A program made the position numbers and the translations under genes. 64,000 nt of DNA from NCBI GenBank assembly GCA_030390025.1, contig CM059431.1, positions 130,884,001 through 130,948,000 on the forward strand. Direction: 5' to 3'. The notes beneath the pieces were generated by a model that saw nothing but the letters and a program-made list of their open reading frames with translations, was not told the origin of the DNA and ran no database searches. This DNA comes from Squalus acanthias (lineage: Eukaryota). Below, one piece after another: positions 1 through 57,587 of this stretch (the stretch's first letter is position 1; each line of letters begins with the position of its first letter).

Positions 1-1062
1 CTGCACATTGTCTCGAGCGTTGACCACAGATGTTCCCGTATTAAAAGCAGTGAACACATCGTTCACAACACCCCTTCTTTGTCTCCCCACCTGACCCAAA
101 ACTTCGTGTGGTGTGGTGTATAAGCTTGTTTTGTCAACCTCTGCAAAATCAAACTCATAAAATTGCCTGAACATGTTTGTTAACAGGACCTGGTACAATT
201 GTTCCGTTTCTTTGGGGCACCACTCTGGTAAATGCACCTCGGTGAGATTTAGAATCACCGAAGCCACCGCGTAATGTACCCCTTGATATAGTATCTGATC
301 TGTTGGCACCAGTACCAGACCATTCCCGGGCCCCTTAGTGGTTTTAGGGCACCCTTCCTCCTGAGCCAAAACCGCCGGAATCGTGGGCGGAGACTTGCGT
401 GGGCGCATGATGAGTTCAGTGGCGTTTACCGGGATCGGGGAGAATGGAGCTCCGCACCCCCTGGTGCTGACATCCCACCTCATCCCTTTCCCATCATCCT
501 GCCACTGTCGTAGGAAAAATATGGATATACCCTTGGGGCAAACGTACTTCGATCCCCATATACAAACATATATTCCCTCATCCGGTTCCCACCATTTGTC
601 CCAACAGACTTTCAATTGTCCGTTAGTCCCCGTAATTGTCCGATGGGTATTGTTATCCAATCGCTCCCACTTGACCGAGGAATTTCTCATAGTCTTGCTT
701 AACTTCCATAACCACCACCATTGGCTCAATGGGACCTTCCCATTGCACGTCAAACAAATCCTTTTGCCGACGGTGACGCTGATTCTGGGTGCAATGATCC
801 TCACCCTGGGACACAGTAAAGAAGTCTCTTTGTAGGCAAATCCGGATGCGCTGGAGTATTCCGTTGAATTCGTTCCCAGCCATCCCGGCCACCTTCCCTT
901 GTGGAAATAAGTGGCGATTTCCTCAGCCTCTCGCTCCCCGGTCCCATCCGTCGTGATGGGGGCCGTGTCCCCGGAGCAACCGAACACAACGACATCCTTG
1001 GTGAGGCCCCGATAGGCCAATCCATATCCGATCGTTGCGAGCACCATCAGAATCCTTTCCAT
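1..1062 (-). CDS. env: Envelope/fusion glycoprotein with an N-terminal Ig-like domain (354 aa visible, open at the window edge)
   Basis: Manual translation from ATG 1062 shows no stop down to base 1. Features: MERILMVLATIGYGLAY signal peptide; Ig motifs VTVGKRICLTC...W...DEGIYVC; five NxS/T sequons; RQRR followed by GVVNDVFTAFNTGTSVVN. Confidence 0.88.
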   Translation of the reverse strand, partial: MERILMVLATIGYGLAYRGLTKDVVVFGCSGDTAPITTDGTGEREAEEIATYFHKGRWPGWLGTNSTEYSSASGFAYKETSLLCPRVRIIAPRISVTVGKRICLTCNGKVPLSQWWWLWKLSKTMRNSSVKWERLDNNTHRTITGTNGQLKVCWDKWWEPDEGIYVCIWGSKYVCPKGISIFFLRQWQDDGKGMRWDVSTRGCGAPFSPIPVNATELIMRPRKSPPTIPAVLAQEEGCPKTTKGPGNGLVLVPTDQILYQGVHYAVASVILNLTEVHLPEWCPKETEQLYQVLLTNMFRQFYEFDFAEVDKTSLYTTPHEVLGQVGRQRRGVVNDVFTAFNTGTSVVNARDNVQ

Positions 1063-1333: not shown

Positions 1334-2375
1334 CTAAATTCTGCGAAGGCTGCCACGAGCTTTTCCCAGTGGCGGGGGGGCACTGACCCCTTCCTTTGAT
1401 CTGCCGCAGCCTGTCGTCGCTGCGCTGGGACTGGGATCTCCCTGGGCTGCCTTGAACTTACGCCTGGGGGTGTACGAGGGTTTTGGCCACAACTTCCTGG
1501 GCTGGGGTGTCCGACTTGACCTACGGAGGGCTACCTTGGGCAAGATTTCCAGGACCGACGGACCGGGAACCGAGACTTCCACCGTCACGGCCTGTGGTCC
1601 CACCACAGCCGCTGGCTCTGTCTCCCCTGGCTCCGCCCCCCTGGGCTCGGGATCTGCGGTTTCCGACTCCACCCTACTTGTCTCTACAGTAAGTGGATCT
1701 TCACTCACAATCCCTATCTCCCCTATGCTTGGGTCAAGGGCGGAACCTCCGTCCTCCGAACCCACCACCTCTTAGACCGGGTCACTACCTTGGTCGAGCT
1801 CTCCGAGCTCTTCCTCATCTGAATCCCAAGACCAAGAAAAGATCCTACACTTTTCCAGAATGTCCTCTCCCCTCACGCAGGCTGCTTTACCCTGCCTGTG
1901 TGCCCTGCGGTTCTACCCGGGGCTGAGAGTCCCCACTCGCAGGTTTGGCCCCTCCCCTATGACAGGCCACCGCCCCTGCTTGTGCCTTCTGTGAAATCTC
2001 GCCTGCTGGAGGCTGAGGATTTCTATTCTGTTTTAGTTTGGGCAACTCTGCTACCATGGCTTGCAACTGCGGGGTGGTGAATTCCCCCGGGGTTGTTGAG
2101 CAAACCATCCCTCTGGCTTTGGATAGGGCTTGGGTCAGACCTTTTATCCTTTCCTCACAGGGCCCATGGTTTAAATCCTCATACTCTCGGCTCCTGGCTA
2201 CCCTGTAGGCTGCCTTTATGTCTCTAAGCTGCCCTTCTAGCCCATCTATTTTCCCCATTAAGCGGGCGTTCTCCTCCCGCAAGGCCTGCTCTTTTAACCT
2301 GGCCTCCTTACAGGAGGCCCACTCCTGTGCGTGTCTTTCAAGGGGACACAGGTAGGCAGGCTGCGCCGGTTCCAG
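1334..2375 (-). pseudogene. ORF2 of the LTR element (Gag-paralogous coiled-coil module plus acidic/Pro-rich and basic tail), disrupted
   Basis: Continues in frame directly after the gag TGA. Covers track ORFs 1887..2282 and 1334..1768, which are linked by one frameshift (~1890) and one stop (~1773). No protease, RT or integrase core motifs seen. Confidence 0.65.
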
Positions 2376-4175
2376 TCAGAAGTCTGGGTTGTATGGGGCT
2401 GTTGCTACCTTTCCGTGTGAGGTCATAAGAGACCGCATGGCTCCTAACATGGACTCTATCGCATCGGGATGGATAGGCACACCAGCTCCTTTCTCAGAGA
2501 CAGGCGCTTGGGTTCGGACTGCGGGAGCTTTTTCCCTGGAGTCCTTCCAGGGATTCCTACAGTTTTTACGCCAGTGACCTGTCTTCCCGCACCCGTAACA
2601 AACACCACTGGTTTGTGGGGCGCGATTTCCCTCCTGATGCCACTCTTTCTGAGCCGGAGCTGCGGGCTTTGCCTCATGCACCTTTCCCTTAAGTGGACGC
2701 GCTCCCATGCTCCTAGTGTTCTGATACCCTATGGTGAGTCGATTCAGGACAGATTCCTCTGTTGTCTCGGGGTTAGTGGGATCAAACAACGCTCTGGCCT
2801 GCTCCCTGACGGCTGGCAAGCTGTTGGCTACCATGCACCTGAGCCAATGAGCTTTCCCGGCGCCGTCCAGATAGATGCGCTGTGGCGCACCTTGGCAGCT
2901 ACGCTGATATACTGGCCACAGTCTGTCGGCGAAAACCCGCGGGGGTTCTCCCTCCATCTGTACGGTCTGACCCAATCTGACGAACGGACCTTCGTCATCC
3001 GCCCCTAACACTTCTAGGACCTCGTCCCGTAAATCCCCATCGCTTTTATTTCCCTTCTTGCTCTCGTCGGAGAGACACTGAAGGATCGAGCTATCTAAAG
3101 TGAACAGCAACATCTTGGTCTTTTCCTCGTCGTCGCAGCCATTAATTGCTGCGGTCTGTTCTACTTCTCTAAAATGTACGGAAGGGTCGTCTGACTCGGA
3201 CAGCTTCCGTACATGGCTAATCATTGCTCTCAGCTGGTGTGAGCTGTGGGGCAATACAAGTTGGTTCAGGATATCCCCGTCTGCCCCATTTGCCCCATTC
3301 GGGCCTCTCTTATGACCTCGGACCGGACACATCGGTCCCGGTCTCGACGCTACCTCCGGGGATTGTCCTACCTCGGGAACCTTCTTCTCTATTTCCACCA
3401 CCTCCTCCCTTACCCAGGTTGCCGTATAGCTGGGTGGCGCGGAGGGCATAGTGGTATATACCTCTTCTGCTTTTTCCGGTAGGGATTTTGGGAATTCCCT
3501 ACCCACCTGTGGCTGGCTCGCTGACGGGCTGATGAGACACACCAAGCCGTTTGCCTTACTCAGGGACTCCCTCAGGTTCTCTATCTCCCTCTGGCAAACA
3601 CTGTGGTCGGCTCTCTCATGCCTATCCTCGAGGGCCATCTTGTATGCCGCCCTAACTCCCTTCAAGCTTTCTTCCTAAGCTTTTATCTGGCTAGCTAGGC
3701 GGATACACCGTTCTCTAATCCTTCCCTCGCTTAATTTTGCTTCTGTGACCTGACATTCTAGGTAATCAATTTTAGCCTCGTGGTGGTTGGCTACTATTTG
3801 GCGTTCCTGATGTAACGCATTCAATGATGCAATGAGTTTCTGTCCTCCCGTGACCTTTTCCTCCATCTCAGTTTCCAATTCCCTGATCTGAGCTGCCTGT
3901 GCTGCAATGACCTGGTCCGAAAGTTGGACTTGCTTCTTGTAGCACATCAGCCAGACCGCTTTCTCTACCGACTTCTTATGATCTTTACTACCTGTCCATT
4001 TGATGGCGGCGTCTAGCGGACGCTTATCCATCAGTAGGTCACTTATCCACCTTTTGGTTAAGTTAACCTTCCCAAACACATAGTCGGCTACCCTCTCATC
4101 CATCACATTTCACCTATTCAAACCAGGGTCTAAAACATTACTCTCCTGCTGCCAATGTCCTGCCGCGGTCGCCAT
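2376..4175 (-). pseudogene. gag: Gag polyprotein, 600 codons in one frame with two internal stops (TGA 4112-4110, TAG 3677-3675)
   Basis: Track ORFs 3675..4106 and 2376..3665 share a frame with ATG 4175. N-terminal coiled coil, capsid-like motifs (DPSVHFREVEQTAAINGCDDEEK; QMEGEPPRVFADRL), and CX2CX4HX4C knuckle CYGCGKTGHWRKNC at 2600-2559. Confidence 0.9.
4157..4174 (-). promoter_or_regulatory. Primer-binding site complementary to tRNA-Arg(TCG)
   Basis: Minus-strand TGGCGACCGCGGCAGGAC. The plus strand GTCCTGCCGCGGTCGCCA matches the 3' 18 nt (including CCA) of vertebrate tRNA-Arg(TCG) as recalled. Confidence 0.85.
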
Positions 4176-4179
4176 TTTC

Positions 4180-5948
4180 TGTAAGGGGGCATGTCTCAGA
4201 CGGTGCTGGTGCGAGGTTAGGCCTTCGTTGCCTAATACTATTGCTTGCTCTGGTCTCCAGCCAGCCTTTTTGCAATAAGCACCTGTGAGTGGTTCGACCC
4301 ACTCGCCCTTACGGTTCTAACACTGGACTTAGATGCAGGGAGCAGTAATGCAGGGAAAAACTCAAATAGACCCGGTTGAATAGTACGAAATGGAAATCTT
4401 TATTGCATGGCGTCTAAAATCATGAAATACATGTCATAGGCGCAAATCAAAGAGAGTACAAGTATACATACATTCATAAAGCTTGGTCTATGGAAATGGA
4501 GAACACACGGCACATTATACCTTAACCTTATTAAAAACCACCCTCCCGTAACACTACCTACACTACGTCTAGATTTGTAGGATCGTAAAACATGCTCACC
4601 ACTCGTGTTACTTCGGAGATTTTAAAGTGGGGCACTCAGCTCGTTTCGCTGCAGCGCCTGACTGTCACGTGTTTGGAAGGGTCTCTGCACCCCACTTGTT
4701 TACTTTTGCTGCTGCGAAAAGCAGGCCAGACTCCCTGTTGTCATGAAGAACTCGACGGAACTCGGATAAAATTCAAAGAAGAGTCTTCCTGTGTTCAACA
4801 CAGGTTGTAGTCGGTAGAACTCAAAGAAGAGTCCTGTATTTATATTTTCGGGCGCGGTCGGGGTTTACTGACCGTGGCGGCACGTGGAATTTCTTCTCGT
4901 CTCCTCGGGCCTCCGGGTCCAGACACCGTTTACCGACACTCGGGATGGTGTACCCTGTTACTTGCCCTTGTCGGGGCGGCTCGTACCGATTGAGCTCCAC
5001 CCAACACTTGAATAACTGACCAGTATGGCTAAGAGTCAAGAGTCAACAAAGTCCAGAGAGAAAATCGAGAGCCCACAAGTCAAGTGAGTTCATGAAGAGG
5101 CAAGCGAATAAGAGACCGATGGACATTTGTTCTCTATAGTTATAGTGATGTGTCCGCTTATCTCCCGCTCAAATCTTAATGTTTGTCCTTTGTGTAATAT
5201 TTGGCGCTCAAAACTCCCAGCATGGGGCGATTATCTTTTTTAACGGGTTTCGGTAGCACCTGAAACTGGCCAACTATCCGTTAATGTTTTCCCCATTGTT
5301 GGACCAGCCAGGATGTGTATGGATCGTCTCCCTGACTGGTTTTGGGGCCCCCCGAATACTTGCTTAATCACCCGTCGATGTCTCTCTCATTGTAGAGCCG
5401 GGGGGTATTTGTGTATTGATGTGTCTGGATGGGCCTTCGATTGCCCAGTACAATGATCCTTACTGTGCATAGGAAAATGATTCCAGCACTTATATCTTTG
5501 CTATTGTTCCAAATGCAAACGGGTTGCATCCTGTCTTTATCAGTGTTTACCGAGTATGATCCAATCTTATACTGAATGTATATTCAACGCCATCTTGTCT
5601 GCCCACTGTGTTTCTGGAAGCTTCTGCCACGATGCGCGGTGGCCATTTTACAGGCTTCTGTGTCCTTTATTATCAGGACAGCATTTCGTTTAATAAAACT
5701 GATCAACGAATCTGCTTCTCTTATGTTATTTTGAATCGCGATAATTGCGAAACTTTACAATTCCTAGCTTTTTCCTCCCAAAATGTATTACTTCATACTT
5801 GTCAACTTGAAATTACATCTGCTAGCTGTCCGCCCATGCTGCTAACCCATCTATGTCTTTACAGTCCTTCTAGCTGTTTGCCAAGTTCCCTCCTTTTGTG
5901 TCATCAGCAAATTTTGAGATTTATGCCCAAATCCAAATCGCCTATACA
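4180..5948 (-). repeat. 5' LTR (~1.77 kb)
   Basis: On the minus strand it begins TGTATAGG (5948) and ends CCCTTACA (4180), 5 nt before the PBS. TATAAATA at 4844-4837 and AATAAA at 4404-4399. The outer boundary is inferred because no second LTR is in the window. Confidence 0.75.
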
Positions 5949-26940: not shown

Positions 26941-28564
26941 GGGATAGAGTTTCCGCTTTGGGCACAAGCGACGATCTGATTGCAAATTGCGCCCAAAATT
27001 GCTCTAGTTTTGAGAAGTGTTTTTTTACCTCATGTTTCTGCTCAAACTCATTTGCATATTGGTGAATGCAATATCTGCAATGAACCAGCGCAATCCGGCA
27101 GCGTTTTAGAATGCAATTTTTTAAAATAATTTTTTGCTAAAAAAATATTCCTTGCTATATTTCAGTGTGGTAACTTGGTGCACTTTGACTAATACAGCTG
27201 AAAATGGGGTTATCACAAAAAATAAGTATTTTAATCAGAATGTCTATTCCACCACCTGCAAGTAACCCGATTTTAAATAACTGAAAATAACTTTAAAAAA
27301 CTATACGGACCATTTACCAGTTATATTGGTGTACAGTAAACAGTTTCTTAGTAAATTAAAAAATATATATATTCAAAAGCTTTTAAAATATGGGGGAAAA
27401 ATTCAGTCGCGCCCCATTTGGGGCGCAAATATCGGCCGGGCGCAAAGATTAGCGCCTGGTGCTAATTATCGCCACCGACTGCAAACTTCACTTTTATCGC
27501 CCCTGGAGGTGATTGCAGCGCTAAATCAGGCGCTTCACACCTGTCTCAAGGCGCAAAGGCTGAGGAGCGAGGCGCTACCTCAGAGCGCTGGCGAAGCTCA
27601 TGTAATGTCAGTCAGCAATGGAACACACACACAATGGCATGGGCCAGTTCTTAAAGGGGATGGTTAATCTTGCTTTCCATCCACATCCTGCTCATTGCAG
27701 CCATGAATCTCGGCCTGGAGAGACCTGCACATCAAATCTGCTGGAAAGAACAATGGAGAGTACCAGGCCAAGAGCTCAGAGTGCAGCCCCCACAGTCTCT
27801 GCTAAATCGATACAAGGAATGGCAAATCAAAATGAACCTGCAAAGTGCTGCTCAGTACCCAAAACTCCTTCACCCAACGTTGAATCTCTCCAGAAGTCTC
27901 TACCTCTCTCTCTCAGAATGCGTAGTTCAAAAATGGCACCAACAATAAAAGGCAGGAAGCGGTCACCTTTAAATAGCGCTCCCCCTTTCCCTTCATGACT
28001 GCAGAACGCTCCCCTCAACCTGTCGTTGCTAGCGTCAGGCGGTAAGGCAGGGGGCGCCACTCAATATCCGCTCCGGGGCGATACCGGGGCGTTGCGCACT
28101 CGAGTGACGTCATGATCTGCCGGCGCAGGAGATCGTGGCGGTAGTGTTTAGCGCCGCCGCAAAATGTCTAGTTAATTTCGCGAGCGGCGCAAACTTCGCC
28201 GCGCCCGGGCGCTAGATGCTTTGCGCCCCATTAGCGCCCTCTTAAGGCGCTAACGGGAGGCGCAACCAACTGAATTTTCCCCCCCAAAAGAACCAGCTTA
28301 ATTTTTAGAGCCTCCTCAAAGGCCCGCAAATGAGGGCAATTAGCAGAAACTCCCAATGGTGATTGATACAATATGGGGGCATAGCCAGTTTTGTGGCCAG
28401 CTTCTTGCACAATGTTTTTTAAACAAGTGCAAAAGATCGTAGAAACTCGATTTGTGCTGATCGTAATTTGCGCTTAAATTTCCACGATCTTTTGTGATCG
28501 TTTCATCAATTTCAGGCCAATTACACCAAAAAAAAATAGCGCAACCAAGCACAAAATCCAGGCC
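26941..28564. mobile_element. Older Harbinger-type MITE hosting a younger MITE
   Basis: Imperfect TIR-like ends GGGATAGAGTTTCCGCTT / AAGCACAAAATCCAGGCC. Confidence 0.5.
27392..28284 (+). mobile_element. ~890 bp Harbinger-type MITE, copy 1
   Basis: TIR GGGGGAAAAATTCAGT / ACTGAATTTTCCCCC; near-identical to 41526-42417 and 43020-43912. Confidence 0.9.
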
Positions 28565-28914: not shown

Positions 28915-30712
28915 CTAGCATACGGATACCAGTAGTAGGCAAAATGCTAGAATCCATTATTTGGGACGTGGTAACAGGGTACTTAGAAAATCATAAAATG
29001 ATTAGGCAGAGTCAACATGGTTTTATGAAAGGGAAATCATGTTTGACAAATCTGTTAAGAGTTGTTTGAAGATGTAACTAGTAGGATGGATAAGGGGAAA
29101 CCAGTGGATGTAGTGTATCTGGATTTTCAAAAACCATTTGATAAGGTGCCACACAAGAGGTTATTACACAAAATTAGGACTCAGGGTATTGGGGGTAATA
29201 TATTAGCATGAATTGAGGATTGATTAAGGGACAGAAAACAGAGAGTAGGAGGGAAAAATTGAGTCGCGCCCCCTTTGGGGCGCTAACTTCGCCGGGGCGC
29301 TACCTTTAGCGCCCCCGCGGCCAAAATTAATCGGTAGTGCCCCAAGAGGGAAGCGGGCCACTACTGGAAGCACCCCGCCTCCTTCTTGGGGCGCTGCGAG
29401 GAAATATCGCGCGCTACGTGCCGTGGTACTGCAGGCCTTCCTCCCCTTCTTAGAGGGGCCTTGCGCAGCGCGACCCGGGGCCCAGCTGGGCCACCAGGGA
29501 TTGGAGTGCCGGCAAAAGAGCCCGCCACTCAAGAGAAGTGCCAGGCTCACGGAGCGCAGCCGGCACTCGGGGGGGCTGAAGAGGAGGCCAGGGATGGCAA
29601 CGGGGGCAGGTGCTGGCAGGCCGCCCCAGCCACAGGTAGGCCCCCCTGACCCCGTCGGATATAGCGCCCGGTGGTAAGTCAGGGGGCGCTACCGAAGATC
29701 GTGGCCGGGGCGCGAGCGGGGCGCTGTGCACGGCGATGATGTTATCGCCGGCGGCGCAGCGCCGCAGGGCGCTAATGGTTACCGCCGCCGCTAACCTCCC
29801 GCTGAATTTCGTGGAAGGCGTTGGCGGCGATGCGCCCGGGCGCTAGTTGCTTTGCACCCCGTTAGCGCCCTCTTGGGGTACTAGTGGGGTACCGCAAGGA
29901 TCAGTGCTTGGGCCTCAGCTATTTACAATCTATATTAATGACTTCGATGAAGGGACTGAGTGTAACGTATCCAAGTTTGCTGATGATACAAAGTTTTTAG
30001 GTGGAAAAGTAAGCTGTGAGGAAGACGCAATGAGGCTGCAGAGAGATATAGACAGATTGACTAAGTGGGCAAGAACATGGCAAATGGAATACAATGTGGG
30101 GAAGTGTGAAGTTATCCACTTTGGTAGGAAAAACAAAAAAGCAGAATATTTTTTGAATGGTGAGAGACTGGGAAATGTTGCACTTAGAGGGACCTGGGTG
30201 TCCTTGTACATGAATCACAGAAAGTTAACATGCAGGTACAACAAGCAATTAGGAAAGCAAATGGTACATTAGCTTTTTGTTACAAAGGGATTAGAGTATA
30301 AGAGTAAAGAATTCTTACTACAATTATACAGGGCATTGGTGAGGCCAGACGTGGAGTACTGAGCACAGTTCTGGTCTCCTTACCTAAGGAAAGACATACT
30401 TGCCTTAGAGGGAGTGTAGCGAAGGTTCACTAGACTGGTTCCTGGGATGAGGGGATTGCCCTATGAGGAGCAATTGAGTAGACTAGGCCTATATTCCTTA
30501 GAGTTTAGAAGAATGAGAGGTGATCTATTTGAAACATTGAAACATAAAATTTTTAGAGGGGCTTGACAGGGTTAATCGTGGGAAAATTTTTTCCCTGGCA
30601 GCGGAATCTAGAACAGGGGGGTCACAGTCAGAGAATAAGGGATAGGCCATTTAGGACTGAGATGAGGAGACACTCAAAGGGTTGTGAATCTTTCGAATTC
30701 TTATGTTCTTAT
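28915..30712 (+). mobile_element. CR1 LINE fragment interrupted by a GC-rich MITE
   Basis: GKMLESII...SQHGFMKGKSCLTNLL; SGVPQGSVLGPQLFTIYINDFDEG...FADDTK. Confidence 0.93.
29248..29878 (+). mobile_element. GC/CpG-rich Harbinger-type MITE related at its ends to the 890 bp family; right end truncated
   Basis: Starts GGGAAAAATTGAGTCGCGCCCC and ends GTTAGCGCCCTCTT, as in copy 1. Confidence 0.75.
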
Positions 30713-30729
30713 ATTTTTATAAAGAATAT

Positions 30730-32356
30730 AGATACACACAGAGACAGCGAGAGTGAACCACAGATACACACAGAGACAGCGAGAGTGAGCCACAGATACA
30801 CACAGAGACACCGAGAGTGAAGCACAGATACACACAGAGACACTGAGAGTGAACCACAGATACACACAGAGACACTGAGAGTGAAGCACAGATACACACA
30901 GAGACACTGAGAGTGAACCACAGATACACACAGAGACACTGAGAGTGAAGCACAGATACACACAGAGACACCGAGAGTGAACCACAGATACACACAGAGA
31001 CACTGAGAGTGAACCACAGATACACACAGAGACACTGAGAGTGAACCACAGATACACACAGAGACACTGAGAGTGAACCACAGATACACACAGAGACACT
31101 GAGAGTGAACCACAGATACACACAGAGACACTGAGAGTGAACCACAGATACACACAGAGACACTGAGAGTGAACCACAGATACACACAGAGACACTGAGA
31201 GTGAACCACAGATACACACAGAGACAGCGAGAGTGAGCCACAGATACACACAGAGACACTGAGAGTGAACCACAGATACACACAGAGACACTGAGAGTGA
31301 ACCACAGATACACACAGAGACACTGAGAGTGAACCACAGATACACACAGAGACACTGAGAGTGAACCACAGATACACACAGAGACAGCGAGAGTGAGCCA
31401 CAGATACACACAGAGACACTGAGCGTGAAGCACAGATACACACAGAGACACTGAGAGTGAACCACAGATACACACAGAGACACCGAGAGTGAACCACAGA
31501 TACACACAGAGACACCGAGAGTGAACCACAGATACACACAGAGACACCGAGAGTGAAGCACAGATACACACAGAGACACCGAGAGTGAACCACAGATACA
31601 CATAGAGACAGCGAGAGTGAACCACAGATACACACAGAGACACTGAGAGTGAACCACAGATACACACAGAGACACTGAGAGTGAACCACAGATACACACA
31701 GAGACACCGAGAGTGAACCACAGATACACACAGAGACACCGAGAGTGAACCACAGATACACACAGAGACACTGAGAGTGAACCACAGATACACACAGAGA
31801 CACCGAGAGTGAACCACAGATACACACAGAGACACCGAGAGTGAACCACAGATACACACAGAGACACTGAGAGTGAACCACAGATACACACAGAGACACT
31901 GAGAGTGAACCACAGATACACACAGAGACAGCGAGAGTGAGCCACAGATACACACAGAGACACCGAGAGTGAAGCACAGATACACACAGAGACACTGAGC
32001 GTGAAGCACAGATACACACAGAGACACTGAGAGTGAAGCACAGATACACACAGAGACACCGAGAGTGAACCACAGATACACACAGAGACACTGAGAGTGA
32101 ACCACAGATACACACAGAGACACTGAGAGTGAAGCACAGATACACACAGAGACACTGAGAGTGAAGCACAGATACACACAGAGACACTGAGAGTGAACCA
32201 CAGATACACACAGAGACACCGAGAGTGAAGCACAGATACACACAGAGACACTGAGCGTGAAGCACAGATACACACAGAGACACTGAGAGTGAAGCACAGA
32301 TACACACAGAGACACTGAGAGTGAACCACAGATACACACAGAGACACCGAGAGTGA
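30730..32356. repeat. 32 bp minisatellite, ~51 copies
   Basis: Unit GAACCACAGATACACACAGAGACACTGAGAGT with a few recurrent variants. Confidence 0.97.
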
Positions 32357-41299: not shown

Positions 41300-42805
41300 A
41301 AAATAACAACAGAAAACGCTGGAAAAACTCAGCAGGCCAGGCAGCATCCGTGGAGAGAGAAACAGAGTTAATGTTTCAGGTCGAAGACCTTTCGTCAGAA
41401 CTGGAAAAAAGCAGGAAATGAAATAGATTTAAAGCAAGTATAATGCTGGGAAAAGGGGGAGGGGATGAAAGAACAAAAGGCAAGGTTAGTGGTGGGATAG
41501 AAAGCAGGAGAGATTAAGAGACATAGGGGGGAAAATTTAGTTGGTTGCGCCTCCCGTTAGCGCCTTAAGAGGCGCTAATGGGGCACAAAGCATCTAGCGC
41601 CCGGGCGCAGCGATGTTTGCGCCGCTCGCGAAATTAACTAGACATTTTGCGGTGGCGCTAAACACTACCGCCACGATCCCCTGCGCCGGCAGATCGTGAC
41701 GTCAGTCGAGTGCGCAATGCCCCGGTATCGCCCCGGAGCGGATATTGAGTGGCGCCCCCTGCCTTACTGCCTGCCGCTAGCAACGACAGGTTGAGGGGAG
41801 CGTTTTGCAGTCAGGAAGGGACTGGGGGAGCGCTATTTAAAGGCGACCGCTTCCTGCCTTTTATTGTTGGTGACATTTTTGAACCACGCATTCTGAGAGA
41901 GAGAGAGAGAGACTTCTGGAGAGATTCAACGCTGTGTGAAGGAGTTTTGGGTACTGAGCAGCACTTTGCAGGTTCATTTTAATTTGCCCTTCCTTGTATC
42001 GATTTAGAAGAGAGTGTGGGGGCTGCACTCTGAGCTCATTCCCTGGTACTCTCCATTGTTCTTTCCAGCAGATTTGATGTGCAGGTCTCTCCAGGCCGAG
42101 ATTCAAGGCTGCAATGAGCAGGATGTGGATGGAAAGCAAGATCAACCCTTCCCTTTAAGAACTGGCTGGGGCCATTGTGTCTGTGTTCCATTTCTGACTG
42201 ACATCACATGAGCTTCGCCAGCGCTCTGAGTTAGCGCCTCGCTCCTCGGCCTTTGCGCCTTAAGACAGTTGTGAAGCGCCTAATTTAGCGCTCTAATCAC
42301 CTCCAGGGGCGATAAAAGTCAAGTTTGCAGTCGGTGGCGATAATTAGCGCCAGGCGCTAATCTTTGTGCCCAGCCGATAATTGCGCCCCAAATGGGGCGA
42401 TACTGAATTTCTCCCCCATAAAGAGATAATCAAGGCAAGAGGAGGTGTTAATGTGACAGGTTGAGGCTAGATGAAGTGTGAACTGGGCAGGCAGAATGAA
42501 GGACAGCTGCCAGCTTCTGGGAGGGGAAAAAAAAGCCAAACAAAAGAGTGGATGAAAAAATAAAATTAAAAAATATATACATGTGATAGGGGCCAAGGTT
42601 ATGATCTGAAATTGTTGAACTCGATGTTGAGTCCAGAGGGCTATAGGGTGGCTAAATGAAAGATGAGGTGCTGTTCCTCGAGCTTACGCTGAGCTTCCGT
42701 GGAACAATGTAAGAGGCCGAGGACGGTGAGGTCAGAGTGGGAGTGGAGTGGAGAATTAAAGTGACAGGCCACCGGGAGCTCGGGGTCCCCCTTACGGACT
42801 AATTC
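41300..42805 (-). mobile_element. Penelope-like element 3' part, hosting MITE copy 2
   Basis: PLE terminal motif with a hammerhead core at 41398-41374; flanked by the direct repeat GCATTTTTATGT. Confidence 0.75.
41526..42417 (-). mobile_element. ~890 bp Harbinger-type MITE, copy 2
   Basis: TIRs and 3 bp TSD ATA/ATA. Confidence 0.92.
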
Positions 42806-43019
42806 GCATTTTTATGTTGTGCCTTTCACAACATCAGGATGTCGCAAAGTGCTTTACAGCCAATTAAGTACTTTCGTAATGTAGGAAATACAGTTAGGGT
42901 CTGGGGCTGGGCCAGCAGTTAGGGGCTGGGGCCAATGAAGTACTTTTGTAATGTACGAAATGTGGCAGTTTATGCACAGCATGGACACACAAACAGCAAT
43001 GTAACAATGCCCAGATAAT

Positions 43020-43912
43020 GGGGGAGAAATTCAGTATCGCCCCATTTGGGGCGCAATTATCGGCTGGGCACAAAAATTAGCGCCTGGCGCTAATTATCGC
43101 CACCGACTGCAAACTTGACTTTTATCGCCCCTGGAGGTGATTAGAGCGCTAAATTAGGCGCTTCACAACTGTCTTAAGGCGCAAAGGCCGAGGAGCGAGG
43201 CGCTAACTCAGAGCGCTGGCGAAGCTCATGTGATGTCAGTCAGAAATGGAACACAGACACAATGGCCCCAGCCAGTTCTTAAAGGGAAGGGTTGATCTTG
43301 CTTTCCATCCACATCCTGCTCATTGCAGCCTTGAATCTCGGCCTGGAGAGACCTGCACATCAAATGTGCTGGAAAGAACAATGGAGAGTACCAGGCAAAG
43401 AGCTCAGAGTGCAGCCCCCACAGTCTCTGCTAAATCGATACAAGGAATGGCAAATCAAAATGAACCTGCAAAGTGCTGCTCAGTACCCAAAACTCCTTCA
43501 CACAACGTTGAATCTCTCCAGAAGTCTCTCCCTCTCTCTCTCAGAATGCGTAGTTCAAAAATGGCACCAACAATAAAAGGCAGGAAGCGGTCACCTTTAA
43601 ATAGCGCTCCCCCTTTCCCTTCATGACTGCAGAACGCTCCCCTCAACCTGTCGTTGCTAGCGTCAGGCGGTAAGGCAGGGGGCGCCACTCAATATCTGCT
43701 CCGGGGCGATACTGGAGCGTTGCGCACTCGAGTGACGTCATGATCTGCCGGCGCAGGATATTGTGGCGGTAGTGTTTAGCACCGCCGCAAAATGTCTAGT
43801 TAATTTCGCGAGCGGCGCAAACTTCGCCGCGCCTGGGCGCTAGATGCTTTGCGCCCCATTAGCGCCCTCTTAAGGCGCTAACGGGAGGCGCAACCAACTG
43901 AATTTTTCCCCC
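43020..43912 (+). mobile_element. ~890 bp Harbinger-type MITE, copy 3
   Basis: TIRs and 3 bp TSD AAT/AAT. Confidence 0.92.
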
Positions 43913-53511: not shown

Positions 53512-56500
53512 TCAGTGGGGGGAGATTGCAGATGGTCTTGCAGGACGAGCTCGAGCAGCTCTGGGCCTAGAAGACCCGGCTATAGACTGCACCACCTTGG
53601 CATAGGCGACAGCAGTCTGGGCTGCCGAGCTAACAGGCAACAGCAAGAGCAATGGCGGAGTGGCAGTGGAGGAAGTACAAATGCTGTCATCCTGAGAGAG
53701 GACAACAGGTTCGTGCTCCACGGAGCCACTGCCACTCTCCTGGGGCGGCGCCTCAGCAATCCTAGTAATCTGCTGGAGGACGGATTGCTGGATTGCTGTG
53801 AGACCCTGCAAGCCCCTTTCCACACTGGTAAACCCAGCCACGATGGCAGCAGTCTGAGCTTGTGTGGCAGCAACCTGACCTTGCGTGACAGAAGTCTGAG
53901 CTTCCACTGCAGCACTCAGATGTTGGGTCACTTCCGCTTGTGCTGCAATGGAAGCTGAGACATCGCCCATCAGACCCTGCATCATGGTTGGGTCCACAAG
54001 TGCACTAATGGCGTTACCCATCTCTTCCATCCTGGAAATCATGGGCTCCAAGCTCCTTGCAAAGCACTATGCAAGGTTGGAACCGGACTCCTTGACAGTG
54101 GCAACAGACTCTCTGGCAGGCCTGCCAATGCACCAAGCATTTCTGTGTGCACGCCCATCACCCTTCTTCTATAGGCCGCCCCATCAAAGTCCTCTTCTGA
54201 GTCCTCTGCAGCAGAACCCATGTGCGACCTCGCCCTCCAGGGAGCTGGCACTTGTGCTACCCTTGCCCCTGCCCTGGCTACAGGCCACTCGTGCCCGGTG
54301 ACTCACCACGTGCAGATCCGCCTCTATACGACCGTCTGAAGTACGTGCAGTGTCAGTTTCTGAGCTGGTTCCTGCGAGTGTGAGATCGAGTGACAGTGTC
54401 TCATCTTCTGAACCACTCACCTCTTGCTCTTCCTGCACTGGATGGGCAGGTTGGAGTTCCTGAGCATCTGAAAAGAGAAACGAACAAGGTTAGGGTTGTG
54501 ATGAGGTATGGGGGGAAAGCAAGATATCCATGCTTACACCATCAGCAGCTTCTAAGTAAGAAGAGATTGCGGACTGAGGGGAAGTGGGATGTGAGAAGGA
54601 AAATTAGATATGAGCATAGTGTCATCTTCAATGGTGTCATCCTCGCCAATTGACACAGTCTCAGTGACGGCCCCTCCACTAATGTCAAGCACGGTCTCTT
54701 CCAGCTGGGTCAGGATCTGCAGGCTTGCCCCCCACCGTCGGTTAACTGTTGCTGTCTACGGTTATGAGACACCTTGCCCTGCAAGAGAGAGGGAAGTGTG
54801 TCAGTGAGTGTGGTGCAATGTGTTTGGGTGAAGTGTGTCAGTGAGTGTGGTGCAATGTGTTTGGGTGAAGTGTGTCAGTGAGTGTGGTGCAATGTGTTTG
54901 GGTGAAGTGTGTCAGTGAGTGTGGTGCAATGTCTTTGGGTGAAGTGTGTCAGTGAGTGTGGTGCAATGTGTTTGGGTGAAGTTTGTCAGTGAGTGTGGTG
55001 CAATGTGTTTGGGTGAAGTGTGTCAGTAAGTGTGGTGCAATGTGTTTGGGTGAAGTGTGACAGTGAGTGTGGTGCAGTGTGTTTGGGTGAAGTGTGTCAG
55101 TGAGTGTGGTGCAATGTGTTTGGGTGAAGTGTGTCAGTGAGTGTGGTGTAGTGTGTTTGGGTGAAGTGTGTCAGTGAGTGTGGTGCAATGTGTTTGGGTG
55201 AAGTGTGTCAGTGAGTGTGGTGCAATGTGTTTGGGTGAAGTGTGTCAGTGAGTGTGTGTAATGTGTTTGGGTGAAGTGTGTCAGTGAGTGTGGTGCAATG
55301 TGTTTGGGTGAAGTGTGTCAGTGAGTGTGGTGCAATGTGTTTGGGTGAAGTGTGTCAGTGAGTGTGGTGCAGTGTGTTTGGGTGAAGTGTGTCAGTGAGT
55401 GTGGTGCAATGTGTTTGGGTGAAGTGTGTCAGTGAGTGTGGTGTAGTGTGTTTGGGTGAAGTGTGTCAGTGAGTGTGGTGCAATGTGTTTGGGTGAAGTG
55501 TGTCAGTGAGTGTGGTGCAATGTGTTTGGGTGAAGTGTGTCAGTGAGTGTGGTGCAATGTGTTTGGGTGAAGTGTGTCAGTGAGTGTGGTGCAATGTGTT
55601 TGGGTGAAGTGTGTCAGTGAGTGTGGTGCAATGTGTTTGGGTGAAGTGTGTCAGTGAGTGTCGTGCAATGTGTATGGGTGAAGTGTGTCAGTGAGTGTGG
55701 TGCAATGTGTTTGGGTGAAGTGTGTCAGTGAGTGTGGTGCAATGTGTTTGGGTGAAGTGTGTCAGTGAGTGTGGTGCAATGTGTTTGGGTGAAGTGTGTC
55801 AGTGAGTGCGGTGCAGTGTGTTTGGGTGAAGTGTGTCAGTGAGTGTGGTGCAGTGTGTTTGGGTGAAGTGTGTCAGTGAGTGTGGTGCAATGTGTTTGGG
55901 TGAAGTGTGTCAGTGAGTGTGGTGCAATGTGTTTAGGTGATGTGTGTCAGTGAGTGTGGTGCAATGTGTTTGGGTGATGTGAGTCAGTGAGTGTGGTGCA
56001 ATGTGTTTAGGTGAAGTGTGTCAGTGAGTGTGGTGCAATGTGTTTGGGTGAAGTGTGTTTCAGTGAGTGTGGTGCAATGTGTTTGGGTGAAGTGTGTCAG
56101 TGAGTGCGGTGCAATGTGTTTGGGTGATGTGTGTCAGTGAGTGTGGTGCAATGTGTTTGGGTGAAATGTGTCAGTGAGTGTGGTGCAATGTGTTTGGGTG
56201 AAGTGTGTCAGTGAGTGTGGTGCAATGTGTATGGGTGAAGTGTGTCAGTGAGTGCGGTGCAATGTGTTTGGGTGATGTGTGTGTCAGTGAGTGTGGTGCA
56301 ATGTGTTTGGGTGAAATGTGTCAGTGAGTGTGGTGCAATGTGTTTGGGTGAAGTGTGTCAGTGAGTGTGGTGCAATGTGTTTGGGTGAAGTGTGTCAGTG
56401 AGTGTGGTGCAATGTGTTTGGGTGAAGTGTGTCAGTGAGTGTGGTGTAGTGTGTTTGGGTGAAGTGTGTCAGTGAGTGTGGTGCAATGTGTTTGGGTGAA

Positions 56501-57587
56501 GCGTGTCAGTGAGTGTGGTGCAGTGTGTTTGGGTGATGTGTGTCAGTGAGTGTGGTGCAATGTGTTTGTGCGAAGTGTGTCAGTGAGTGTGATGCAATGT
56601 GTTTGGGTGAAATGTGTCAGTGAGTGTGGTGCAATGTGTTTGGGTGATGTGTGTCAGTGAGTGTGGTGCAATGTGTTTGTGCGAAGTGTGTCAGTGAGTG
56701 TGATGCAATGTGTTTGGGTGAAGTGTGTTTCAGTGAGTGTGGTGCAGTGTGTTTGGGTGAAGTGTGTCAGTGAGTGTGGTGCAATGTGTTTGGGTGAAGT
56801 GTGTCAGTGAGTGTGGTGCAATGTGTTTGGGTGAAGTGTGTCAGTGAGTGTGGTGCAATGTGTTTGGGTGAAGTGTGTCAGTGAGTGTGGTGCAATGTGT
56901 TTGGGTGATGTGTGTCAGTGAGTGTGGTGCAATGTGTTTGGGTGAAGTGTGTCAGTGTGTGTGGTGCAATGTGTTTGGGTGAAGTGTGTCAGTGAGTGTG
57001 GTGCAATGTGTTTGGGTGATGTGTGTCAGTGAGCGTGGTGCAATGTGTTTGGGTGAAGTGTGTTTCAGTGAGTGTGGTGCAATGTGTTTGTGCGAAGTGT
57101 GTCAGTGAGTGTTTGGGTGATGTGCCTGTCAGGGTTGAACTGCTGGCAGTGTGTGCAAGGTGTGAGATGTCGGTATTAGGCTTGCAGCAGTGGTTGGTGT
57201 GTGAGGGTGAGGTGAAGCTATGACTGTGAGGTATGAGTCGTGATTGATAGAGATTGTTGGTAGGTGAGTGATGGGGGTGTGGTGTATTGAGCAGTGTCTG
57301 AGTCTCGTGGTGCAGTGGCGGGAGACGGCTTTTGAAGATGCATTCACTCACCTTGAACACTCGTGAGGTCATTGAACTTTATTCAACACTGGATCCAGAT
57401 CCTCAGGGTAAGACTACTGGCAGTGACCGCTTCCGCTATCTGCTCCCACTGCCTTCTGACTGAGTCTGGAGGGCCTCCCGGTCCTCTGCGGGTGTACGAC
57501 CTGTCTCCACTGTTCTTCCCCCCACACTAAGGCCCCTAGTGCTGCGACGGAGAACCTTGGTGCCCTTTCTCTGCCCTGTTGAGCCAT
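53512..57587 (-). pseudogene. Harbinger Myb/SANT-like DNA-binding protein gene (spliced, degenerate)
   Basis: ATG 57587 MAQQGRERAPRFS; donor AAG|GTGAGT at 57351; acceptor TTGCAG at 54779; exon 2 GKVSHNRRQQQLT; downstream coiled-coil ORF 53512..54051. Confidence 0.75.
54793..57120. repeat. 37 bp minisatellite, ~63 copies
   Basis: Unit GAAGTGTGTCAGTGAGTGTGGTGCAATGTGTTTGGGT. Confidence 0.97.

Follow-up and report, generated by a model that had tools for sequence, protein, structure and literature searches.

We found that ORF2, an open reading frame lying directly behind a retroviral gag gene of Squalus acanthias, is on sequence grounds the pol reading frame of an endogenous retrovirus (ERV) of the type LTR-gag-TGA-pol-env and not a separate gene. 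The Gag-like module inside it is, as far as alignments and trees can tell, a recombination product borrowed from the gag of a sister family and not an ancient duplicated gene. The element lies on the minus strand of the window, the 64,000-nucleotide stretch of contig CM059431.1 analyzed here, and its parts are as follows.

4180 to 5759, minus strand: 5' LTR, about 1.58 kb, with TG...CA ends.
4157 to 4174, minus strand: primer-binding site (PBS), complementary to the 3' end of tRNA-Arg(TCG).
2376 to 4175, minus strand: gag of family A, with an N-terminal helical domain, a long coiled coil, a capsid-like region and one CCHC knuckle.
3537 to 3743, minus strand: Gag module, formed by the end of the coiled coil and the HxxC helix.
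2372 to 2378, minus strand: gag stop TGA in a CTGG context, in frame with the pol slot and likely a readthrough site.
2341 to 2375, minus strand: ORF2 piece 1, the first approximately 12 pol codons, corresponding to the pol start of pol-bearing copies.
2033 to 2339, minus strand: ORF2 piece 2, captured family-C gag in three blocks, 2339-2308, 2307-2082 (the module) and 2081-2033 (start of the capsid region), all on the minus strand.
1946 to 2029, minus strand: ORF2 piece 3, a stretch of family-B pol tail (81% DNA identity).
1334 to 1953, minus strand: ORF2 piece 4, the C-terminal tail of family-A pol, lying beyond the integrase SH3 region and running to the pol stop.
1 to 1062, minus strand: 5' part of env, with an RQRR cleavage site at 84-73; the gene extends past the window.
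L021:6315-4689: 3' LTR, beyond the window.
Target-site duplication of the element: 4 bp, GAAT.

The paired LTRs, the target-site duplication and the tRNA primer site mark the element as an ERV, and its 5' and 3' LTRs differ by 25 substitutions over 1589 aligned positions. Its order is LTR-gag-TGA-pol-env, with ORF2 directly behind the gag TGA and in the same frame. The window copy is pol-deleted and lacks the pol enzyme domains; in one pol-bearing relative, a Pfam scan identified a protease, an RT, a tether plus RNase H and an integrase, with env downstream. The window gag is interrupted by premature stops at 4112-4110 and 3677-3675. The CCHC knuckle was the only named match in Pfam and PDB scans of Gag, and the sole named relative found was a skate protein (59%). 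The His and Cys of the HxxC helix are invariant in 17/17 aligned Gags. The single-sequence fold of Gag was unusable (pLDDT 39), and an alignment-based model of its N-terminus was confident (pLDDT 86) and consists of one helix (44-162), for which Foldseek gave no match at E 0.001 and Atlas matches were uninformative. Gag likely starts at a codon that overlaps the primer-binding site (window 4175-4157), and the skate protein and several relatives open with the same peptide as Gag does there.

Other repeats were seen alongside the element. The genome contains tandem arrays of tRNA-Arg(TCG) genes with a period of approximately 1.6 kb (G000:C26:38.99-42.2 Mb, L023; 422 exact pattern matches genome-wide). 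The window itself carries an inverted pair of 849 nt and 96% identity (41571-42419 and 43018-43866, with 598 nt between the arms), a third copy of the same arm 13 kb away (27389-28238), and minisatellites of 32 nt and 37 nt (approximately 30600-32000 and 54650-57000).

In pol-bearing copies, the frame that follows the gag TGA opens with the dozen codons found in ORF2, encodes protease, RT, two RNase H-type domains and integrase in turn, and closes with the low-complexity tail that ORF2 also has. At the DNA level, window 2378-2341 is 79-84% identical to the pol start of these copies, and window 1953-1334 is 86-90% identical to their tail, in the same frame as the integrase. Alignment to a donor copy places in-frame deletions of 30 and 177 nt between the family-C gag blocks of ORF2, and at each of the four founding junctions the pieces continue in the frame of their source. 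ORF2 is longer than in the preliminary description, and in the window copy a frameshift near 1893 and a stop at 1774-1772 break it in piece 4. Among 60 elements sampled by their primer site (the first listed of 2835 exact matches, a few known, adjacent or contig-edge ones being skipped), 42 had RT motifs, 14 a Gag-like insert and 4 neither, in a sample that favors young copies through exact matching. This number of Arg primer sites and this share of RT-bearing elements among the sampled loci (L044-L103) mark the parent family as large and young, and it has gag-TGA-CTAG-pol in one frame. Beyond the integrase SH3 region, its pol frame continues as a tail of some 290 codons, and every family seen has an RRSxRxPQP-like motif there. 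A second type of short pol, free of insert, has a protease piece joined in frame to an RNase H piece (L064, L065, L092 and L109) and sits behind both family-C and family-B-like gags.

Pfam and PDB scans of ORF2 returned nothing credible, and a search for longer proteins with residues 1-120 gave no match, a result of little weight. A search of 1.84 billion proteins gave five matches, of which three look like Gag N-termini, one like a partial Gag and one like a module joined to env-like sequence. In a protein from a public collection (P0006), a similar Gag module is fused directly to env-like sequence, perhaps as another deletion derivative.

The preliminary description had reported that ORF2 begins with a diverged copy of a module of its own Gag, and the homology is real. 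Gag 3743-3537 (stop read as X) aligns without gaps to ORF2 2306-2100, with 27/69 identities and a BLOSUM62 score of 138. This is far above heptad-position-preserving shuffles, none of which reached that score in 20,000 (maximum 47). All 42 other offsets scored below 0, and 0/5,000 shuffles reached the local alignment score under each of three schemes. DNA identity between the modules is 95/207, with 22/69 at third positions. The interpretation of this homology as an old in-place duplication did not hold, as it was another family's gag that supplied the module. The Gag module of one sampled element is 81% identical to that of ORF2, and a query of DNA just downstream of it, i.e., outside the module, found 20 loci of what is here called family C. 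All 20 are 85-92% identical at the DNA level to window 2306-2082, compared with 46% for the ORF2 module versus its own gag. The 15 usable family-C modules (two apparently frameshifted rows were dropped) are identical to ORF2 at 58-62 of 69 amino acids and to the window Gag at 24-27 of 69. Since the family-C Gags are this far from the window Gag, the 39% identity between ORF2 and Gag is the ordinary distance between Gags of families A and C. ORF2 groups with family C (support 95/88) in a tree built from 36 modules over 69 columns, with at most five modules per group, and a clade of ORF2 with its own Gag is rejected (p-AU 1.5e-56). The net pN/pS of 0.14-0.19 between ORF2 and family C was not taken as a sign of selection on ORF2, since it also covers the period when the sequence was still Gag.

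The different origin also affects other parts of the preliminary description. The Gag stop at 3677-3675 is private to the window copy, 19/19 other best-matching copies being open there, and a TTG>TAG history cannot be read off the aligned ORF2 residue because ORF2 stems from a different family. The motifs stressed at the time, HxxC and LSKAxGxVC, were absent by motif search in 14/14 insert-bearing PBS-sampled elements and in 10/60 junction-sampled ones. The idea that ORF2 stays an open frame in many copies was borne out, with 14/19 best-matching copies running for at least 317 codons from the gag stop, while the separate accessory gene once envisaged is the pol slot.

The ORF2 cassette is found behind at least three Gag families. 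Nine family-B elements, whose Gag is approximately 48% identical in amino acids to the window Gag, match the first 372-430 nt of ORF2 with a DNA identity of 89-93%, and a third group, A2, carries shortened versions of the insert. The exact junction pattern has 235 matches in the genome. Such mosaics are usually explained by template switching between co-packaged RNAs, and both the capture of the family-C gag fragment and the spread of the cassette would have taken place in this way. From the 235 junction matches and the presence of pol-bearing relatives in the same genome, we infer that the ORF2 elements would have been mobilized in trans by the Gag-Pol of helpers.

Frame retention and amino acid constraint were analyzed in 72 copies, 60 from the first junction matches not already sampled and 12 from the PBS sample. 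Indels in ORF2 are in frame in 15/18 cases when shared by at least two copies versus 16/36 when found in a single copy (Fisher p 0.009), those of the non-coding spacer are in frame in 4/21 (unmerged indel calls), and no stop in ORF2 is shared among the 72 copies. Chance microhomologies are in register in 37-57% of cases, and under a null of 0.57, the in-frame excess has p 0.018 when all 18 shared indels are counted and p 0.08 when only the 11 of the insert region are; the microhomology bias weakens the in-frame signal and does not remove it. Indels of the tail may be inherited from pol-bearing relatives. The frame is open for at least 270 codons in 27/60 junction-sampled copies and 11/12 A2 copies. 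Constraint at the amino acid level is clear in Gag (p 4e-6), and the module shows none that is significant across families (20/11 vs 55/22, p 0.5), contrary to the protein-level selection proposed in the preliminary description. Within family A, the module codons have an N/S of 3/6 for shared versus 33/10 for single changes (p 0.018, one of nine tests), a purifying trend that is not robust to re-binning (p 0.07-0.37). The heptad core gives 11/9 for shared versus 26/10 for single changes (p 0.24). Given the trend in the module codons, the coiled coil may be something more than a passenger. The pol tail shows no amino acid constraint overall, also where the copy bears pol (relative ratio 1.17). 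Many spreading variants have a deletion of the HxxC/LSKA part; variants that lose HxxC keep the coiled coil, whose heptad core is retained and often duplicated (an extra 69 nt in 9 copies and an extra 75 nt in 12).

We consider it fairly probable that ORF2 is a pol slot with a captured sister-family gag fragment, likely translated as a minor Gag-ORF2 product by readthrough, and that its open frame likely helps the RNA that carries it in cis. ORF2 would be reached as pol is, through readthrough of the gag stop. The frame has its first Met 40 codons into ORF2, within the module. Among 60 copies, the stop context is TGA CTGG in 48 and TGA CTAG in 9, the window copy having the CUGG variant; a pattern used in the analysis favors this context by construction (52/60). 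UGA CUAG is a known leaky context, according to the accessible text of 10.1101/2021.04.18.440353. A conserved RNA structure after the gag stop was not found in 5 copies, with z values from -1.7 to +1.9 (mononucleotide shuffles, pseudoknots excluded). Contigs of two studies, whose RNA origin is only guessed, cover the insert region and in some cases bridge the gag stop; the joints listed in these guessed RNA contigs include none that splices ORF2 to the Gag N-terminus. Translation of Gag-ORF2 would benefit the element's own RNA in cis, by analogy with mouse IAP 1Δ1 and with MLV reporters, in which readthrough blocks NMD (as described in the sections available from PMC4917968). The benefit that we favor would be stabilization of the RNA, or its engagement by ribosomes that reach the normal pol stop, the coiled coil being largely a passenger.

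A different role for the coiled coil has to be weighed against this. It may be the captured coiled coil itself that is selected, binding within Gag-ORF2 to Gag coiled coils and so aiding defective RNAs in entering, or competing for, helper particles, a reading that we hold to be rather unlikely. It would fit the occurrence of the cassette behind several Gag families, the retention and duplication of the heptad core, the purifying trend in family A and in the core, and the role of the Bik-1 Gag coiled coil in driving membrane association (in the available part of 10.1101/2024.03.25.586437). It fits poorly with a module devoid of significant constraint across families next to a clearly constrained Gag and with the loss of half of the module in spreading variants. 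The insert-free short pol, in addition, also keeps the frame at its protease/RNase H junction, with two Gag families. In a bolder form, to which we give a similarly low probability, the insert might act as a piracy cassette, in which a foreign Gag coiled coil fused to an integrase tail, made by readthrough instead of Pol, would dock onto Gag lattices and let pol-less RNAs exploit the helpers of several divergent families.

ORF2 could also be neutral filler, a chance recombinant that is short and has RNA signals at both pol ends, its frame owed to microhomology bias and youth. In-register microhomology reaching 57%, a tail that is unconstrained even where pol is present and the central-segment swaps known in ETn, ERVK D-type and recKoRV (as presented in the part of PMC10924933 consulted) would agree with this. 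We think it improbable, somewhat more so than selection on the coiled coil, as all ten large rearrangements that involve the insert, by our count, keep the frame (chance 0.0003-0.004 under microhomology nulls), shared stops are absent and the non-coding spacer behaves differently. The view of the preliminary description, in which the element's own Gag module was duplicated in place long ago and kept as a separate accessory gene, can draw on the homology, on third positions more diverged than first and second ones and on a frame open in many copies. Given that the donor family is identified, that a clade of ORF2 with its own Gag is rejected, and that the ORF is the pol frame with its first Met well inside the module, we regard it as extremely improbable. 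The readthrough reading with a benefit in cis is the one retained here.

A 39% internal Gag repeat that seemed ancient is in this way a more recent inter-family recombinant, which corrects a tempting wrong reading. The element also offers a natural, many-copy setting in which to ask what makes non-autonomous retroviruses maintain an open frame derived from Gag-Pol, a matter that we found discussed mainly for IAP 1Δ1. Were the coiled coil functional, it would be a mobile accessory module common to retroviral families with Gags only approximately 48% alike.

The parent family resembles MLV in having gag and pol in one frame with one stop between them (in the accessible text of PMC4178896); MLV uses UAG and a pseudoknot, whereas here there is UGA with CUAG/CUGG and no conserved downstream structure was found. 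The best solved matches of its RT are MLV and then foamy virus, and the nearest named ones are frog and coelacanth proteins (55-57%). From what is available on lokiretroviruses and zebrafish BHIKHARI (Bik-1), the likeness extends to a Gag with an N-terminal coiled coil, a tether plus RNase H and an RXKR-like Env site. The parent family has a dual RNase H and a coiled-coil Gag N-terminus, as lokiretroviruses do, and the "smc" part of Smc-Gag-Pol is the Gag N-terminal coiled coil in the supplementary material seen of PMC7947760. However, Env gave no PF00523 match at E up to 1 (one full-length frame, in a single-sequence scan that may miss it), so the family is not filed among lokiretroviruses. 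In the published portions at hand, the lokiretrovirus screen recorded none in 6 chondrichthyan genomes (PMC7947760), and the accounts of lokiretroviruses and Bik-1 describe no second Gag module (PMC7947760, 10.1101/2024.03.25.586437). Troyka, which is without the tether domain, was dropped as a relative.

Mouse IAP 1Δ1 is closer in organization, being a pol-deleted element with an in-frame Gag-Pol-derived fusion that is reported, in the excerpts available of PMC6466679 and PMC7411935, to aid retrotransposition in cis. The remnant in ORF2 is likewise in frame with gag, with the caveat of microhomology. As far as these sources go, IAP 1Δ1 is a simple deletion fusing gag to pol, whereas here Gag is full, readthrough is needed and foreign gag is included. 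As a class, the ORF2 element is a non-autonomous recombinant ERV, its center replaced, its flanks kept and its enzymes lost. ETn, the bovine ERVK D-type and recKoRV have a central segment swapped for a piece of another retroelement (in the parts consulted of PMC10924933 and PMC6112702), and ERVK[2-1-LTR] D-type, ETn/MusD and recKoRV share with the ORF2 element the central swap, the kept flanks and helpers in the same genome (on the evidence of the accessible text of PMC10924933). In the same text, D-type elements are without intact ORFs, unlike the ORF2 element, and here gag and env are retained and the inserted piece is coding gag from a sister family in the pol frame. We found no description of such a chimera in a literature search that left out most subscription papers and Repbase.
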